Positions 3,633 to 48,507 of a stretch of 64,000 nucleotides of DNA are shown piece by piece. The notes beneath the pieces were generated by a model. The model was given only the letters and a program-made list of their open reading frames with translations, made no database searches and was not told where the DNA came from. A program made the position numbers and the translations under genes. How positions within the stretch are numbered: the stretch's first letter is position 1; each line of letters starts with the position of its first letter. This stretch comes from a virus: IMG/VR virus record IMGVR_UViG_3300044712_000833, positions 1 to 64,000 of that record, one strand, 5' to 3'.

Positions 3633-3661
3633 TTGACAAAAATAAGAAATTGTGGTAGAAT
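3633..3661 (+). promoter_or_regulatory. sigma70/sigmaA-type promoter, extended -10
   Basis: TTGACA-N17-TAGAAT with TG. Confidence 0.85.
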
Positions 3662-14477: not shown

Positions 14478-14550
14478 GCCGTTGTAGCTCAATTGGCAGA
14501 GCAACTGTTTTGTAAACAGTAGGTCTCGAGTTCAAGTCTCGATGGCGGCT
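14478..14550 (+). tRNA. tRNA-Thr(TGT)
   Basis: ACTGT-TTTGTAA-ACAGT anticodon arm, TTCAAGT T-loop; acceptor has 3 G-U pairs; no CCA. Confidence 0.85.
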
Positions 14551-14552
14551 CT

Positions 14553-14647
14553 AGAAAAAAGATAGATTAGGATCGCAACCTGATTGAAAGCGGTGTCTCC
14601 CCGTTTCTTTTTTCTTATTTTTATGGAGAACAATAGGAGAGGAGAAA
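14553..14647 (+). ncRNA. three-helix leader RNA, copy A (before putative small terminase)
   Basis: P1 AGAAAAAAGA/TCTTTTTTCT, GATAG, P2 ATTAGG/CCTGAT, TGAAAG, loop TGTCTCC vs downstream GGAGA x3. Confidence 0.6.
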
Positions 14648-15667
14648 ATGGTAAAAACAAGAAGACTTGCCCCCGAAATTACAGTGGAATCAGGGTTGCC
14701 TCAAAATTTTGGGTTATGTAGAAAATGTCAAAAAATAAAAAAACTTCAGGACTTTTATAAAGCAACGGATTTATTTTTAGATTCTAATGGTCATATGTCC
14801 GTATGTAAAGACTGTATAAACACAATGTACGTTTCTATATTAGACTCCGAACACGGTTCTATATCTAAGACGATTCTTAGAATGTGCAGAATGTTGAATG
14901 TAAAGTATGATGAGAGTGCTATCTCATCTGCGTTGGAACATACTAAAATAAGAGAAGCAGATGAAACAAAACTTTTTGGTTTTTATAGACTAAAACTTTT
15001 GACTAATAATAGAACAGACGTTAGTGATACTTCCGTTGATCTAACTTATAAAGACAGCCCTGTTATTAATATGGGGTTTGATAAACCAATGGAATACGAA
15101 GTTTCTCAGGATGTAATTGACTTTTGGGGTGAAGGATTTGAAACCTCGGAATATGAATGGCTTGAAAAGACTCTTGATGGCTGGAAGAAAACTCACAAAT
15201 GCGACACTAAAGCCGAAGAAGTTTTGTTTAGAGAAATAGTGTTTAAGCAATTTGAAATTGAAAAGGCAAGAAAAGAAAATTCTTCTACTAGCAGTCTCAT
15301 TAAAGAACTTCAAGATATTATGAAAACCGCTTCGGTTGATCCTGCAAAGGCTAATGTTGCTGGTGCTGGAAAAAGTCAAGATACGTTTTCTGCATTTATA
15401 AAAATGATTGAAGAAAACGAACCTGCTGAAGTATTTGGAGATGAGAGAGAAGCCTTTAAAGATTTTCAAGGTATAGAGAAATATTTTTACAAATATGTAG
15501 TTCGATCCATAAAGAATTTTATTACTGGCAGTAGGGATTTTAATCTTGATGCTGAGGAAGATGAGATAGAAGGGGAAATAGAAGAATACGAACCTTTAAA
15601 TTATAATCCTGAAGAAAGCGAACAATCTTCTGACGATAATTCAGAGGAGGCAGAGAATGTCGTATAA
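14648..15667 (+). CDS. putative terminase small subunit (Zn finger)
   Basis: CRKC...CKDC; overlaps TerL start; SPbeta-like synteny. Confidence 0.55.
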   Translation: MVKTRRLAPEITVESGLPQNFGLCRKCQKIKKLQDFYKATDLFLDSNGHMSVCKDCINTMYVSILDSEHGSISKTILRMCRMLNVKYDESAISSALEHTKIREADETKLFGFYRLKLLTNNRTDVSDTSVDLTYKDSPVINMGFDKPMEYEVSQDVIDFWGEGFETSEYEWLEKTLDGWKKTHKCDTKAEEVLFREIVFKQFEIEKARKENSSTSSLIKELQDIMKTASVDPAKANVAGAGKSQDTFSAFIKMIEENEPAEVFGDEREAFKDFQGIEKYFYKYVVRSIKNFITGSRDFNLDAEEDEIEGEIEEYEPLNYNPEESEQSSDDNSEEAENVV

Positions 15668-23225: not shown

Positions 23226-23254
23226 TTGACAGAAAATCTATTCTGTGATACAAT
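23226..23254 (+). promoter_or_regulatory. promoter of nuclease cassette
   Basis: TTGACA-N17-TACAAT with TG. Confidence 0.8.
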
Positions 23255-23259
23255 TATAC

Positions 23260-23353
23260 TAGATGGATAGGGTCGCTCCCGAAAAGCAGTAACTCTCAAC
23301 TGTTCTCCATCTATTTTATATTTAGTTGAGAAATTATTTGGAGAGAAGTAAAA
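23260..23353 (+). ncRNA. three-helix leader RNA, copy B
   Basis: P1 TAGATGGA/TCCATCTA, P2 GGG/CCC, GAAAAG, P3 CAGT/ACTG, loop CTCTCA vs GTTGAGA and GAGAG (SD). Confidence 0.75.
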
Positions 23354-24337
23354 ATGAGAAAAAGAACTGAAAAAGAAATAAAACAAGTTGTTGAAAATTT
23401 AGAGTATAGTTACATTAAAAGTTATCTGGGAAATAAGAATATTGTAAGGGTGATTATTCAAGATAAAAGAGGATACAAATATGATGTTGTGATTTATAGT
23501 ATTTTGCGTGGTCAAGGTATTAATTTTGTAGATAAAAGTAATCCTTTTTCCTTAGAAAATATTTCCCTATGGTTAAAGCTTAACAATAGTCAATTTGAAT
23601 TAGTTAAAGATAATGAATATATAAATGCCTTTTCAAAATTGAATTTGTATTGTAATGTATGTAAAGATTATCCAAAAATGAGTTGGAATAACGTTTTGGC
23701 AGGAATAGCCTGTGGTGTTTGTAAGGGATTTCAGGTGGGAAAACGTCACAATCTAGCTGCTCAAAGACCTGATATAGCAAAAGAATGGCATCCAGCAAAA
23801 AACGGAAGTTTGACCCCGCAAGATGTTACTCACGCATCCCATGAGAAAGCATGGTGGTTATGTCCAGACGGACACGAATATTTTTCAAGAATAAATTCTA
23901 GGACGAATTTGGGAAATGGGTGTAAAGTTTGTTCAGATGAGAGACAGGAATCTAAAATAGCCAATAGGTTAAAGTTCTATATTCTTAGCAAATATCATGC
24001 CAAAGAAGAATATAGAATATACAAAAATCCTGAAACAAATAGATGGCTTCCATATGATATTTATATTCCGTATGGTAGCAATCCTGAATTGAATGGATTT
24101 TATATAGAAATTCACGGCGAACAACACTATAAGATTTGTACTTGGCACAAATTAGTAGCCAATAGAAATAAAATAAGTCCAGAAGAAGAATTTAAATACC
24201 AGAAACGAAAAGATAGATTAAAAAAGAATTTTGCAAAGAAAAACGGAACCTACATAGAAATTGATCTTCGCAAGATAAAAATTGAACAAGATGCAATTGA
24301 ATATATAGAAAAAATTTTAGAGCAAACTCTCCTTTAA
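23354..24337 (+). CDS. free-standing Zn-finger plus Vsr-like endonuclease
   Basis: treble-clef repeat, ESK...YDIY...IEIHGEQHY. Confidence 0.8.
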   Translation: MRKRTEKEIKQVVENLEYSYIKSYLGNKNIVRVIIQDKRGYKYDVVIYSILRGQGINFVDKSNPFSLENISLWLKLNNSQFELVKDNEYINAFSKLNLYCNVCKDYPKMSWNNVLAGIACGVCKGFQVGKRHNLAAQRPDIAKEWHPAKNGSLTPQDVTHASHEKAWWLCPDGHEYFSRINSRTNLGNGCKVCSDERQESKIANRLKFYILSKYHAKEEYRIYKNPETNRWLPYDIYIPYGSNPELNGFYIEIHGEQHYKICTWHKLVANRNKISPEEEFKYQKRKDRLKKNFAKKNGTYIEIDLRKIKIEQDAIEYIEKILEQTLL

Positions 24338-24352
24338 TCAAGGAGAGTTTTT
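24324..24352 (+). terminator. terminator overlapping nuclease 3' end
   Basis: AAACTCTCCTT/AAGGAGAGTTT plus T. Confidence 0.65.
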
Positions 24353-24370
24353 GTTTGGAAGGGAGGTAAT

Positions 24371-26380
24371 TTGACTAAAAAATTAAACTTTGAAATTGAA
24401 AGTGCGGAAATAATTTCCGAAGAACCATCCTCTGAATTTGCAACAGCTAGAATCACAGCTTTTAGTGACGGGGTGAGTAGACATAACACTATTTGCGACG
24501 TAGAAGCACTTAAAAGAACAGCTCCAACAATATATGAAACCCCTCTTGTTTATGAATATGACAGTAGGTTTTCGGATTTCGGAACACACTCTGAAAAACC
24601 AGTAATTGCTGGATTTGTTGTTCCTAACTCTGCGGAGTTTTACGAGAGAAATGATGGAACAGGAAGAACGAGTTTAAGTGTGTTAACGAAGGTGTGGAAA
24701 CGTTATGCTCCTCAATTCATTAACATTTTTAAAAGAGATGGTACAAAAAAAAGATCGGTTTCAGTTGAGATGGAAGTTAGAGACTCTGAAGAAGAGGGAG
24801 AGTACTTGCGTCTTAAGGATTGGGTATATACTGCGATATGCGTATTAGGCGAAATGGTTACTCCCGCCTCCCCCGATGCTGAGTTAGAAATGCTTTCTTT
24901 TGCAGAGAAAAATAATCAAGAATACAAAGAAGCTTACGAGTTAGAGTTTGGTGGTCGTTACGATGATTTAAATTTTAAGATACCTTCTTCCGTTAAAAAC
25001 AATGCAAAACAAGGTCTTGAATTAAGAGAAAAATTTGGTAGAGGTGGGACATCTGTTGGACTTGCTTCAGCAAGATATTTAGTGAGAAATGATGTTGCAA
25101 CTCCTGAAAAAGTTAGGCATATTGCAAAATACTTTCCGCGCCATGCCGGGGACAATCTTGACGATAAAGAATCTAATGGTTGGATAGCGTGGTTACTCTG
25201 GGGTGGAGATGCTGGCAGAAAATGGTCTACTTCTCTTGTTAAACGAATGGATGAGTTAGACGAAAAGAAAATGTCCTATTTCGCAGAGGAGGAAGAAATG
25301 CCATATAAAAGCATAAAAGATGTTAATCCTGCTATAAAAGGTATTAGTCCAGAGCCTACTTTGTCACAAGCGAATCAGATAGCAAAAGAGGCTGATGCAA
25401 TTGGTTCTGATGAAGATAAAAATGGATGGGCGATTGCAATTGCAAACTTTAAAAAGACTCACGTTGTAAAAGACGGAAAGTGGATTAAAAAAGAAAAAGA
25501 GGAATTTGCAGAAGATAATTATCTTGGAATTGAAAACTTTTCATATAATTCTTCTCAAATCCTAGAAATTATTAATTCTTCACTTGGAGAACATAAGTGG
25601 GGAGACGGATTTAGAAAATATTGGGTAGAGTCATTTGATGAATCCTACGCATATATTCACGACAACGAAGATGATAAATATTATAGAGTACCATATCAAT
25701 TAGACGGGGGCGTTTGTTCCTGTGATTTGGAAAATAAAGAAAATGTTATAAGAGGAGGTTTTGAATTAGTTATGGCTAACCCTAACGAAGAAGACAAAAA
25801 ATTCAATTACGCCGAAGTTTTTGCAGATGAAAAATTCGCAGAAATGTTTGCCGAAGTTGAAGAAGATCAAGAAGAGGAAGAGAGAGAAGAGGGAGAAAAA
25901 GAATCATACGCCAAAGCCAAGGAAGAGTTTGGGATGGGTATGAATCCTTCTACTGTCATGTCTGCTATGTATTCGGCAATGAAGCGAATGGGTAAGAGAT
26001 TTGCTTCAATGAAAGAAAAAATGTCAGCTATGGAAAGAGACAAAGAAGTATATCTTGCTGAAAATGCCGATATGAAACAGCGTTTTGCAGATCAAGAAGC
26101 ACAGCAAAAGGAAATGGCTGTTGATGCTTTCATGAAAGAAATGGCTGAAAAGGTCGAAATGGCTGAAGAACAGGTTTCTGAAATGAAGGAAAAATCAAAA
26201 GAATATTCTTTTGAAAAAATTGAAGATTGGAAAAATCATGTAAAGGCTTTTTGCTTTGATTTTAAACCAAAGAAAAATCAAGAAGAAAATGAAGATAAAA
26301 CATTTAAATTCGGTCTTGGTTTTGAAGATATAAAAATCCCACAAACAGGTAATGTTTGGGATAAACTTGATACTAAATAA
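24371..26380 (+). CDS. prohead protease/scaffold polyprotein with inserted domains
   Basis: HNT...P.V...H...SVSVEM...ICVLG...PA; acidic coiled-coil C-terminus; ChaB-like segment. Confidence 0.75.
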   Translation: MTKKLNFEIESAEIISEEPSSEFATARITAFSDGVSRHNTICDVEALKRTAPTIYETPLVYEYDSRFSDFGTHSEKPVIAGFVVPNSAEFYERNDGTGRTSLSVLTKVWKRYAPQFINIFKRDGTKKRSVSVEMEVRDSEEEGEYLRLKDWVYTAICVLGEMVTPASPDAELEMLSFAEKNNQEYKEAYELEFGGRYDDLNFKIPSSVKNNAKQGLELREKFGRGGTSVGLASARYLVRNDVATPEKVRHIAKYFPRHAGDNLDDKESNGWIAWLLWGGDAGRKWSTSLVKRMDELDEKKMSYFAEEEEMPYKSIKDVNPAIKGISPEPTLSQANQIAKEADAIGSDEDKNGWAIAIANFKKTHVVKDGKWIKKEKEEFAEDNYLGIENFSYNSSQILEIINSSLGEHKWGDGFRKYWVESFDESYAYIHDNEDDKYYRVPYQLDGGVCSCDLENKENVIRGGFELVMANPNEEDKKFNYAEVFADEKFAEMFAEVEEDQEEEEREEGEKESYAKAKEEFGMGMNPSTVMSAMYSAMKRMGKRFASMKEKMSAMERDKEVYLAENADMKQRFADQEAQQKEMAVDAFMKEMAEKVEMAEEQVSEMKEKSKEYSFEKIEDWKNHVKAFCFDFKPKKNQEENEDKTFKFGLGFEDIKIPQTGNVWDKLDTK

Positions 26381-28124: not shown

Positions 28125-28153
28125 TTGACAAAATTCTAGTTTTGTGGTAAAAT
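28125..28153 (+). promoter_or_regulatory. promoter of nuclease cassette
   Basis: TTGACA-N17-TAAAAT with TG. Confidence 0.8.
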
Positions 28154-28158
28154 AAAAT

Positions 28159-28249
28159 ATTGAACGGATAGGTTATCGAGACTGAAAAGCGTAATCCCTA
28201 ACGCCTGCCGTTCAATTATTTATTTAGGGAATTATTATAAGGGAAAATA
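28159..28249 (+). ncRNA. three-helix leader RNA, copy C
   Basis: P1 ATTGAACGG/CCGTTCAAT, GATAG, TGAAAAG, loop AATCCCTA vs TAGGGA and AAGGGA (SD). Confidence 0.75.
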
Positions 28250-29230
28250 ATGTCAAAAAAATTGGATTTAAAAGATAAGGTTTTCGGAAGACTAAGGGTA
28301 ATTACTGAGGGTGAAAATTATGTTTCTCCAGATGGGGTTTCTTGTAGTACTTGGATTTGCTTATGTGAATGTGGAAACACTGTTGTTGCAAGAACCTCTA
28401 ATCTTAGAAACGGAAGGTCTCTTTCCTGTGGTTGTTTGAAAATAGAAAAAATAAGACAGTTAAAAATAATAGATTTGTCTGGTAAAATTTTCGGAAAACT
28501 TAAAGTTGATAATTTGTATGAAAACAGAGACGGAAAGATTTATTGGTCTTGTTTTTGTGAGTGTGGGGAAAAAACAGTCGTTCTTGGTAGTAATTTAACT
28601 TCTGGAAAAACTAAATCTTGTGGATGTGGGGAATTAGAACATAAAATGTCTTTTGGAAGAATAAATTTTGAAGACCTTTCTGGTCGTGTTTTTGGAAAAC
28701 TACATGTTGAAAAAATATATAGAAGTTTTAATGAAGAGATTGAGTGGGAGTGCGTTTGTGAATGTGGAAACACTACATATGTAACAACAAATAGGTTGAA
28801 GTCGGGAGCAACTAAATCTTGTGGGTGTTTGAGAGAATCTTTCATAGCATCGGAATTAAAAAAATACTTTTTTGAAAACTATAATGCTGAAAAAGAAAAG
28901 AAATTATTCAAAAATCCAGATACAAATCAATGGTTCAAGTGCGATGTTTATATTCCCTATGGAGAGAATCCTGATGTAAATGGGTTTTACATAGAAATCA
29001 ATGGTGAACAGCATTATCAAATATCTGGATGGACTAAGAAAAAATCCTACAACAAAAACACAACTCCCGAAGAAGAATTTGAATATCAGAAGTACAAAGA
29101 TAAAATTAAGAAAAAATATTGCAATAAAAATGGTTATTACGTCGAAGTAAATCTACTAAAAATAAAAACGGTAGATGAGGCTATCAACTATGTTGAAAAA
29201 CAAATAGAAAAAATAATAGGAGAAAAGTAA
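28250..29230 (+). CDS. free-standing endonuclease (3x WxCxCxCG..SCGC repeats plus Vsr-like domain)
   Basis: three FGxLxV...WxCxCECG...SCGC repeats; C-terminus similar to 23354 ORF. Confidence 0.8.
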   Translation: MSKKLDLKDKVFGRLRVITEGENYVSPDGVSCSTWICLCECGNTVVARTSNLRNGRSLSCGCLKIEKIRQLKIIDLSGKIFGKLKVDNLYENRDGKIYWSCFCECGEKTVVLGSNLTSGKTKSCGCGELEHKMSFGRINFEDLSGRVFGKLHVEKIYRSFNEEIEWECVCECGNTTYVTTNRLKSGATKSCGCLRESFIASELKKYFFENYNAEKEKKLFKNPDTNQWFKCDVYIPYGENPDVNGFYIEINGEQHYQISGWTKKKSYNKNTTPEEEFEYQKYKDKIKKKYCNKNGYYVEVNLLKIKTVDEAINYVEKQIEKIIGEK

Positions 29231-34047: not shown

Positions 34048-34076
34048 TTGACAAATTACTAAAACTGTGATATAAT
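34048..34076 (+). promoter_or_regulatory. promoter of nuclease cassette
   Basis: TTGACA-N17-TATAAT with TG (perfect consensus). Confidence 0.9.
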
Positions 34077-34095
34077 AAATAACCAATTTATTTGG

Positions 34096-34186
34096 TATAT
34101 GCGGGATAGAATAATGTCATGAACTATTTGATAAGTGAGACTCTACACTTCCCGCATATAAAAAATTTTAGAGTTCTAGAGGAAGA
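34096..34186 (+). ncRNA. three-helix leader RNA, copy D
   Basis: P1 TATATGCGGGA/TCCCGCATATA, TGATAAG, loop GACTCTA vs TAGAGT and TAGAGG (SD). Confidence 0.75.
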
Positions 34187-35098
34187 ATGTTAGAAAAAAT
34201 AAAAGAGTTTGGTTTTAATTTCTTAATGGTTGACCAAGAAAATTCTTCACAGATTCATATAGAAAACAAGGAAGGCTATAGAACAAGAACCACGATAGGT
34301 AAAATATTATCTGGTAAAAATCAATTTAAATCAATAGCTCATCCAAGCAACCCATATAGTTTATATAACATAAATCTTTTTATAAAGAAAAATAAAATGA
34401 ATTTTTATCTTTTAGAGAATAATACATATACTTCAGCAACAGATAAGAATTTAAAATGTTATTGTTATGAATGTCAAGATATATTTCTAGCAAGATGGCA
34501 AAGTATAAGTACATTTCATGGATGTGGTCTATGTAATGGAAAACAAGTGGGAGTTAAAAACTTAAAAACCCAAAGACCAGATTTAATAAAAGAATGGTCA
34601 AACAACAATGCAAATCTCCCCGAATCATACTCCGAATTTTCTCACTCCGAAGTCTTATGGAGGTGTTCAGTTTGTGGAAATGAGTGGGCTGATAAAATAT
34701 CCAATAGAACAAATTTAGATAGAGGGTGTAAAAAGTGTTCTATGAGCAAGGGAGAAAAAAGAATATTTCAATTCATTAAGTCTTTTAATTTAAAATTTTC
34801 AAGCGAATATTCTGAAATTCCTTCTGTTAAAAACGGAAAGTTAAGATTTGACTTTTATTTATCGGATTATAATCTTTTCATAGAATATCATGGTATTCAA
34901 CATTACGAACCTATAGATTTTGCTGGAAAAGGTAAAGAGTGGGCTAAAAATCAATTTAAAGAAAACCAAAGAAGAGATAAAATTAAAGAAAAATATTGTT
35001 ATCACAATGATATAAATTTGTTAATAATTCCTTATTGGGATTACGATAACATTGAAAAAATATTAGAGGAAACTCTTCAAGAATTAGAAAGGAGTTAA
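34187..35098 (+). CDS. free-standing Zn-finger plus DUF559/Vsr-like endonuclease
   Basis: SKGE...LRFDFY...IEYHGIQHY...RD..K..YC....LLIIPYW. Confidence 0.8.
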   Translation: MLEKIKEFGFNFLMVDQENSSQIHIENKEGYRTRTTIGKILSGKNQFKSIAHPSNPYSLYNINLFIKKNKMNFYLLENNTYTSATDKNLKCYCYECQDIFLARWQSISTFHGCGLCNGKQVGVKNLKTQRPDLIKEWSNNNANLPESYSEFSHSEVLWRCSVCGNEWADKISNRTNLDRGCKKCSMSKGEKRIFQFIKSFNLKFSSEYSEIPSVKNGKLRFDFYLSDYNLFIEYHGIQHYEPIDFAGKGKEWAKNQFKENQRRDKIKEKYCYHNDINLLIIPYWDYDNIEKILEETLQELERS

Positions 35099-48324: not shown

Positions 48325-48353
48325 TTGACAAAATAATGCTTTTATGGTAGAAT
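48325..48353 (+). promoter_or_regulatory. promoter of relic cassette
   Basis: TTGACA-N17-TAGAAT with TG. Confidence 0.8.
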
Positions 48354-48357
48354 ATTT

Positions 48358-48415
48358 TTGGTAGATAGGGAATCTAGACCTGATAAGAACGTAATCCCAA
48401 ACGTTCTTCTACCAA
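48358..48415 (+). ncRNA. three-helix leader RNA, copy E (orphan)
   Basis: P1 TTGGTAGA/TCTACCAA, GATAG, TGATAAG, P3 AAGAACGT/ACGTTCTT, loop AATCCCAA. Confidence 0.7.
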
Positions 48416-48426
48416 TTTTATTTTCT

Positions 48427-48477
48427 TTTGATAATATAGAAAACATTTTAGAGAAAATACTATCTGAGTTGAGATAG
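48427..48477 (+). pseudogene. C-terminal remnant of deleted endonuclease gene
   Basis: translates FDNIENILEKILSELR*, cf. YDNIEKILEETLQELERS* of the 34187 ORF. Confidence 0.65.
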
Positions 48478-48507
48478 TGTTTTTTATTTTAAGGAGGATT
48501 TTAAATA

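Follow-up and report, generated by a model that had tools for sequence, protein, structure and literature searches.

The window analysed here is the first 64 kb (64,000 bases) of the viral record IMGVR_UViG_3300044712_000833, which amounts to 129,715 bases at 33% G+C and whose core genes (YonG-like, large terminase and YonD-like) are SPbeta-like. Five copies of one structured RNA (copies A to E) are found in this window, and copy B lies between a promoter and a gene for a homing endonuclease. That is, cassette B is composed of the following features, given in window coordinates:

23226-23254, + strand, sigma-A-type promoter: TTGACA, 17-base spacer, extended -10 TG and TACAAT, with 11 of 12 hexamer matches
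23260-23313, + strand, copy B RNA, a 54-base three-way junction (RF02996 match, minimum-free-energy fold, covariation)
23260-23267 with 23306-23313, + strand, stem P1, then junction bases UA
23270-23280, + strand, hairpin P2
23281-23285, + strand, junction GAAAA
23286-23303, + strand, hairpin P3, with loop L3 (AACUCUCA) at 23291-23298
23326-23331, + strand, site 1 (putative decoy), UUGAGA, complementary to L3 and forming the pseudoknot
23334-23351, + strand, hairpin P4, UUAUUU/AAGUAA, with site 2 in its loop; start codon at 23354
23340-23345, + strand, site 2, the Shine-Dalgarno sequence GGAGAG, also complementary to L3
23354-24337, + strand, nuclease B gene, 327 amino acids, free-standing homing endonuclease
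residues 141-195 of nuclease B, DUF4379 treble-clef zinc finger
about residues 181-327 of nuclease B, Vsr / I-Bth0305I-like domain
24324-24356, + strand, intrinsic terminator with an 11-pair stem and a T run, overlapping the nuclease stop codon

The tail between the RNA and the gene is 40 bases long. The other four copies of the RNA are located as follows:

14553-14615, + strand, copy A RNA (14553-14647 with its tail, leading the YonG-like gene 14648-15667)
28159-28216, + strand, copy C RNA, RF02996 match
34096-34160, + strand, copy D RNA, match to a single-copy covariance model
48358-48415, + strand, copy E RNA, intact junction

An earlier note on this DNA had proposed that five loci share one architecture, and each of the five was found where it had been placed, copy A included, with the P1 arms that the note had quoted. 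A covariance model with copy C as its only sequence (R1) returned the other four copies as its four best matches in the window (E-values 6.6e-5 to 0.01; next match 0.039), tying copies A (2.6e-4), D (0.01) and E (0.0023) to copies B and C. When the whole 129,715-base genome was searched with a model of all five copies (R2), no sixth copy appeared, the next match reaching 19 bits (E 0.1). A loose descriptor gave 14 matches in the genome against 5-12 in shuffled sequences and is thus not specific alone, but the requirement for a P1 of at least eight pairs together with both hairpins left only the five copies.

The copies form a covarying three-way junction with a pseudoknot, and this fold is supported by an alignment of the five copies that was fitted to the covariance model. 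In that alignment 96.3% of the cells are paired and 12 of the 17 pairs change on both sides in a compensatory manner, in line with the earlier proposal of a fully covarying P1 within a three-way junction. These pairing and compensation values were reached by none of 500 shuffles, and controls with a slid register paired at 32-49%. Alignments obtained with MAFFT (A1-A4) did not reflect the structure and were not used further. The bases fixed in the junction are UA, then GAAAA or GAUAA, then one or two pyrimidines; in the middle segment GAUAA occurs in D and E, and GAAA in A. Folding of single sequences against shuffles supports the structure weakly (z from -0.3 to -3.1) and recovered the junction in just two copies, B and E; it is the covariation that speaks for the fold.

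With Rfam release 15, copy C matched the int-alpA family (RF02996) at 47.7 bits and copy B at 37.8 bits, the gathering score being 35.8; copies A, D and E gave no RF02996 row, although rows with E as high as 10 were considered. The earlier note had recognised no named family and had held that a match to a characterised Rfam family would remove the novelty of the RNA. A match to a named Rfam family exists, and a new RNA family is excluded by it; what was found is a known RNA family in a new context, with five new members. A reverse comparison agreed with this assignment, in that L087, L037 and L013, all of them bacterial, were matched by the five-copy phage model with E below 0.01. Because the Rfam model matches the phage copies and the phage-copy model matches bacterial ones, the RNA belongs to a catalogued family. 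The phage copies also carry the features of RF02996 in consensus alignments, namely the three-stem junction with UA / GAAAA / CU, and, in A to D and not in E, pairing of L3 with the tail (in the RF02996 consensus, loop CCuU matches tail AgGG). Nevertheless, the public model detected none of five further phage-type loci, and thus recovered only 2 of 10 phage-type copies, as compared to all 15 of the 15 bacterial loci tested (49-72 bits). Judged from these comparisons of sequence, the five copies are divergent low-G+C members of int-alpA, and phage-type copies as a whole form a divergent low-G+C branch that is mostly missed by the public model. The Rfam scan of the window showed no riboswitch family above threshold, and a hammerhead or another known ribozyme or riboswitch was rejected, the junction bases being unlike the consensus sequences of these RNAs and no Rfam row supporting such an assignment.

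The int-alpA family was described in a survey by Weinberg et al. 2017 (PMC5737381), and passages of the main text of that paper do not mention the motif. A literature search on RF02996 returned no paper mentioning the family identifier, and one on leader pseudoknots of homing endonucleases returned nothing relevant. In the two papers found to use 'int-alpA', it denotes a gene order only, or the Rfam family listed in 2 of 5 Escherichia coli strains and dropped from the assays.

For a broader sample of the family, a pattern taken from the RF02996 consensus gave 120 genomic stretches, of which 80 loci were examined (L010-L089). Among these, 33 with a P1 of at least seven pairs and the UA junction were kept, and the 47 that failed the descriptor were dropped. 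The tails were compared in 41 members, i.e. 32 bacterial and 9 phage-type; L012, whose locus ends 8 bases after P1, was left out.

In the bacterial members, the tail consists of a pyrimidine-rich linker, a site complementary to L3, and a short hairpin that exposes in its loop a second such site, which is the Shine-Dalgarno sequence, followed by the start codon. The loop L3 is itself pyrimidine-rich and resembles an anti-Shine-Dalgarno sequence. Sites complementary to L3 (at least 5 base pairs, at most 62 bases after P1) occur at least once in 39 of the 41 members and at least twice in 31. By comparison, 200 shuffles of the tails gave at least one site in 22.2 members on average (maximum 30) and at least two in 6.6 (maximum 13), and a reversed L3 gave 22 and 7. 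Moreover, L3 and its sites covary (CCUUCA/UGAAGG, CCCUA/UAGGG, CCCUG/CAGGG, CUCCUC/GAGGAG, CUCCGAA/UUCGGAG), including pairs that do not look like a Shine-Dalgarno interaction: UCCAACA/UGUUGGA, present twice in each of the viral loci L160 and L138, AGUCCA/UGGACU in L014, and UUACUCUC/GAGAGUAA in L178. Since the second site of L160 and L138 keeps UGUUGG, the match between site 2 and L3 seems to be selected and not merely a by-product of Shine-Dalgarno likeness.

Site 1, the putative decoy, lies 6-14 bases after P1 in the leaders (9-14 bases in copies A to D, where it spans 5-7 base pairs), and site 2 lies 17-28 bases after P1 in the members with two sites. Arms of at least four base pairs (P4) surround site 2 in 26 of the 31 two-site members, with 22 distinct arm pairs; when the flanks were shuffled 500 times, this was so in 7.8 members on average and never in more than 15. 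Copies C and D have tails built like that of B, with the following sites:

28225-28230, + strand, copy C site 1
28240-28244, + strand, copy C site 2, inside the hairpin UAUUAU/AUAAUG
34169-34175, + strand, copy D site 1
34177-34181, + strand, copy D site 2

The tail of copy A has both sites and no hairpin, and that of copy E has neither site. The pseudoknot described in the earlier note was therefore recovered as a loop-to-tail pairing in A to D, but is absent from E.

The promoter pattern TTGACA-N14-TGNTANAAT occurs six times in the window, where 0.02 occurrences would be expected, and four of the six precede copies B, C, D and E, the four copies that had been said to follow a consensus promoter. 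The distance from the -10 box to the start of P1 is 6 bases in B and in C, 5 in E and 20 in D. Copy A is promoterless and begins 2 bases 3′ of a gene for a threonine transfer RNA (tRNA-Thr, 14478-14551). The remaining cassettes and their promoters are:

28125-28153, + strand, cassette C promoter, consensus pattern
28125-29230, + strand, cassette C, with the nuclease gene at 28250-29230
34048-34076, + strand, cassette D promoter, consensus pattern
34048-35098, + strand, cassette D, with the nuclease gene at 34187-35098
48325-48353, + strand, cassette E promoter, consensus pattern
48325-48493, + strand, relic cassette E: promoter, intact junction, no site 1, nuclease remnant and terminator hairpin
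48418-48477, + strand, remnant of a nuclease C-terminus; the peptide ends like the C-terminus of nuclease D
from 48459, + strand, cassette E terminator hairpin

The proteins encoded by cassettes B, C and D are related to each other and match homing endonucleases in PHROG. As the earlier note had suggested from the letters, nuclease B combines a zinc finger (DUF4379, E 3.4e-19) with a Vsr-like domain. The DUF4379 zinc finger is present in D as well, and a predicted structure of the shared C-terminal domain (predicted local distance difference test score, pLDDT, 83.9) resembled the catalytic domain of I-Bth0305I (3r3p_B; Z 9.6, root-mean-square deviation 2.4 Å over 96 of 98 residues) and Vsr (1cw0_A; Z 8.6). 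Foldseek gave only weak PD-(D/E)xK or restriction-endonuclease-like rows for this domain, and a sequence search against the PDB returned only spurious 14-3-3 rows. In the aligned nucleases of cassettes B, C and D, five columns (E, D, E, Q and H) show no variation. On the strength of the structural model, the nuclease would belong to the Vsr-like homing-endonuclease lineage, and GenBank homologues of nuclease B are labelled 'group I intron-associated VSR homing endonuclease'. A group I intron context was rejected here, as no intron family matches the window and the genes lie between open reading frames (ORFs) and not inside them. The terminator scan bore out the terminator that had been placed over the end of the nuclease B gene.

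A search of GenBank phages at the DNA level gave no match to a close relative. Two related phage fragments (L003 and L005; capsid protein 53% identical) keep 11 core genes in the same order and lack cassettes B, C and D between them. Promoter, RNA and nuclease thus behave as one unit of insertion or deletion, and the suggestion that the cassette is mobile agrees with this. The gene following cassette B (24371-26380), taken for a prohead protease in the earlier note, is YonD-like (atlas 0.95), with a weaker likeness to Mu-like prohead proteases (0.93), scores that serve as a lead only; a protease is plausible. The C-terminal half of this gene product is Glu/Lys-rich.

Copies A and E are not associated with an intact nuclease gene. 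The gene that copy A heads (14648-15667) is not a nuclease gene but a YonG-like packaging gene overlapping the start of the large terminase gene; its product had no match in the PDB or Pfam. Since copy A starts 2 bases after the tRNA, which is CCA-less and of the type tRNA-Thr(UGU), 3′ processing of the tRNA would create the 5′ end of this leader. In a related Alicyclobacillus phage, the same tRNA lies 36 bases before the yonG homologue, a gap that leaves no room for the RNA, and the RNA is missing. Copy E, with its intact promoter and junction and its nuclease remnant, is the relic of a decayed cassette.

The related phages carry the same RNA at other places, with scores of 33.9 and 27.3 bits; one of these copies precedes a GIY-YIG/NUMOD3 gene and the other an HNH-type gene, the HNH motif being read from the sequence of a gene that Pfam did not name. 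The RNA likewise precedes a nuclease gene at L160, L138 and L149 (a duplicate of L138), which are loci of other viral contigs, and it also occurs before an ORF of 72 amino acids. However, only 3 of 41 viral loci with homologues of nuclease D (two of them distinct) carry the RNA upstream. The five-copy model was also run over 10 whole GenBank phage records and gave one convincing copy, in MT835469.1 (L178). It gave nothing convincing in SPBc2, Lactococcus 949 and AM1, Thomasclavelia TR-TP1, Staphylococcus SapYZU04, Enterocloster CB457P1, Alicyclobacillus KKP_3916 or Lysinibacillus LC76P1. A 24-bit match in phiCD211 was rejected, lying inside the coding sequence of a regulator and lacking the motif, and weak matches at 20.5 bits in L144-L146, in which the junction bases are missing, were left out of the counts.

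In bacteria, 27 of the 33 members are followed by an ORF of at least 90 codons. Among the 27 cases with an upstream ORF of at least 80 codons, the RNA starts 6-13 bases after a co-directional stop codon in 18, which places it inside an operon. Ten upstream proteins were examined, comprising three P4-type integrases, six XRE/HigA-like or antidote proteins and one with no assignment; ten downstream proteins were compared with Pfam, NCBIfam and PADLOC, and none reached a family. The E. coli members lie in a satellite-like island, where the integrase gene is followed by the RNA, then by a gene for a DUF6387 or hypothetical protein, a helix-turn-helix regulator, an antirepressor and, further on, a primase. 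In L171 (7008-7098) and L172 (7008-7099), both on E. coli chromosomes, the 90 bases that separate the integrase gene from the DUF6387/hypothetical gene are taken up by the RNA. Since the latter gene comes before the small helix-turn-helix regulator, the gene controlled by the leader would be the variable one between integrase and regulator.

Taking these observations together, we lean slightly towards the reading in which the int-alpA-type leader acts in cis and controls translation of the next gene through a competition for L3 between the decoy and the Shine-Dalgarno site. Pairing of L3 with the decoy would leave the ribosome-binding site free, and pairing of L3 with the ribosome-binding site would block it, so that the leader would fix, or switch, how often translation starts. 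As site 1 tends to be the longer of the two matches, L3 probably holds the decoy by default, with the ribosome site left exposed in the loop of P4; a change to repression, if there is any, would need a trigger. In the phage cassettes, the leader would probably keep down the amount of a DNA-cutting enzyme whose gene has a consensus promoter. The place of the RNA in its family and its fold are shown by the data, as are the two complementary sites, P4 and the presence or absence of cassettes; we infer that the pairing controls translation, in which direction it does so, and what, if anything, flips it.

Several points weigh against this reading. Site 1 usually pairs over 6-8 base pairs and site 2 over 4-6, and for that reason the L3-Shine-Dalgarno pairing may never form. 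The likeness between the two sites could come in part from both being Shine-Dalgarno-like, and P4 is weak or absent in 4 of the 7 phage-type copies with two sites. The pair counts come from an alignment made on the model, and this works in favour of the structure, although the P1 arms given in the earlier note can be read off the sequence itself. The minimum-energy structures of copies A and C do not form the junction. The bacterial sample derives from a pattern that fixes P3 and covers 80 of the 120 loci. Finally, Rfam types int-alpA as 'Gene; sRNA', and a promoter and junction without gene or decoy, as in copy E, would also fit an RNA that works alone.

The last two points, together with the U-rich tract that follows P1 in the Rfam consensus, could be taken to indicate a trans-acting small RNA, with the junction released as a short transcript ending at that tract or at a downstream terminator (relic E does possess promoter, junction and terminator, without a gene) and L3 repressing other mRNAs. 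We consider this quite unlikely, as a covarying partner of L3 is found in cis, downstream, in 39 of the 41 members, and two in 31; an ORF directly follows the RNA in most members, the bacterial RNA sits within an operon (6-13 bases behind a stop codon in 18 of 27), and P1 with its U tract was not called as an intrinsic terminator in the terminator scan. A rather unlikely alternative is that the junction serves as a structural 5′ cap or insulator, shielding the mRNA from 5′-end-dependent decay and isolating the ribosome-binding site, with no switching. Such a role would suit copies B, C and E, in which 5-6 bases separate the -10 box from P1, and copy A, which follows its tRNA by 2 bases; it would also suit a leader that travels with cassettes into unrelated contexts. 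However, the RNA of bacteria lies within transcripts, downstream of integrase or antitoxin genes, some 13 unpaired bases come before P1 in copy D, and invariant junction bases along with two covarying partners of L3 exceed what a protective stem needs.

Two further explanations concern what the RNA might bind. The junction could be a sensor, i.e. a riboswitch or protein-binding switch whose bound state decides the partner of L3, so that the genes are made in a certain cell state. An invariant junction with a pseudoknot competing for the Shine-Dalgarno sequence is the usual layout of a translational riboswitch, and the family is confined to phages, satellites and islands; on the other hand, there is no candidate ligand, the downstream genes have no common function and no conserved partner gene was seen, so that we regard a sensor of this kind as unlikely. 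The RNA could also be a cofactor, guide or operator of the adjacent endonuclease, as the earlier note had proposed in part, given that three intact copies and one relic here, as well as L160, L138 and its duplicate L149, stand before nuclease genes. Yet no fewer than three catalytic families without relation to each other (Vsr-like, GIY-YIG and HNH-type) are represented among the nucleases, the gene behind the RNA is not a nuclease gene in copy A, in L178 or in the bacterial members, and the RNA is present at only 3 of the 41 loci with nuclease D homologues. Because the RNA precedes Vsr-like, GIY-YIG, HNH, YonG-like and Pfam-less genes, it is not nuclease-specific; the unrelated downstream proteins rule out a dedicated nuclease partner, and we consider a cofactor, guide or operator of the nuclease very improbable.

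Compared with the bacterial int-alpA members, the phage copies have the same three-stem junction (UA / GAAAA / CU), pyrimidine-rich L3, linker after P1, purine tail that pairs with L3 and association with mobile elements. They differ in being low in G+C, in having their own consensus promoter and in preceding homing-endonuclease genes, whereas bacterial members lie behind integrase or antitoxin genes. In T4 homing endonucleases such as I-TevI, a hairpin occludes the ribosome-binding site only in read-through transcripts, and an internal late promoter relieves the block. The present cassettes similarly contain a selfish nuclease gene whose own leader can pair so as to mask its ribosome-binding site; however, a conserved three-way junction with a decoy/Shine-Dalgarno pair, located entirely 3′ of the promoter and shared with non-nuclease genes, takes the place of that hairpin. 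The comparison with I-TevI made in the earlier note therefore holds for the outcome, i.e. control at the Shine-Dalgarno site, and not for the structure. With I-Bth0305I (EDxHD / Vsr-like, PDB 3r3p), nuclease B shares the catalytic domain fold of its C-terminus, but the genes here are free-standing and not intron-borne, with an N-terminal DUF4379 zinc finger and 12% identity to 3r3p. PreQ1-II and SAM-II are pseudoknot riboswitches that hide the Shine-Dalgarno sequence, and have in common with the RNA described here a loop-to-tail pseudoknot with Shine-Dalgarno-like bases near the start codon. Here, in contrast, the decoy occupies the position of the pseudoknot and the true site is in a separate hairpin loop; Rfam gave no match to the preQ1-II and SAM-II families in the window.

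int-alpA has been an orphan RNA family, catalogued since 2017 and typed as a small RNA. At the present locus and in its relatives it is seen to be a portable 5′ leader, moving with homing-endonuclease cassettes in large Firmicutes-type phages. The two-site design provides a definite hypothesis, open to testing by mutation, and it would explain how selfish genes with strong promoters are kept at tolerable levels. A broader reading, which we put forward tentatively and hold to be doubtful, would make int-alpA a widespread translational switch confined to mobile elements, in which the conserved junction senses the state of the cell or of the infection (by way of a ligand, a protein or the ribosome) and shifts L3 between decoy and ribosome-binding site, and in which the P2 tips pair identical leaders. 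If this were true, production of homing endonucleases in phages, and of cargo genes behind integrases in satellites, would be confined to the proper time and level.

The tip of the P2 hairpin is often self-complementary in a copy-specific manner, as in UCGA (copy C, 28175-28179), UCAUGA (D, 34113-34118) and UCUAGA (E, 48373-48378). Such tips are also seen among L006, L008, L160, L138, L178 and bacterial members; those of copies A and B have no self-complementarity. A self-complementary tract of at least 4 bases is present in 19 of 27 distinct P2 loops, compared to a mean of 9.0 and a maximum of 16 in 2000 loop shuffles. A cruder palindrome test on the whole P2 segment was not significant (at least 4 bases, 33 vs 29 copies; at least 6 bases, 8 vs 9.9). 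The tips could permit copy-specific tip-to-tip pairing between two leaders.

Some additional features were observed. In the minimum-energy fold of copy A (14606-14647), the 3′ strand of P1 (UCUUUUUUCU) pairs with the purine-rich Shine-Dalgarno region and not with the 5′ strand of P1; in this predicted fold, such pairing is possibly a second route to masking the ribosome-binding site. Two further exact copies of the promoter, at 2188-2216 and 3633-3661, stand without the RNA before small genes that lack a known family. In a lytic-looking SPbeta-like relative (L008, 464-1577), a tyrosine integrase gene is followed after 9 bases by the leader and then by the HNH-type nuclease gene, and the order of integrase and RNA is the same as in the bacterial islands.

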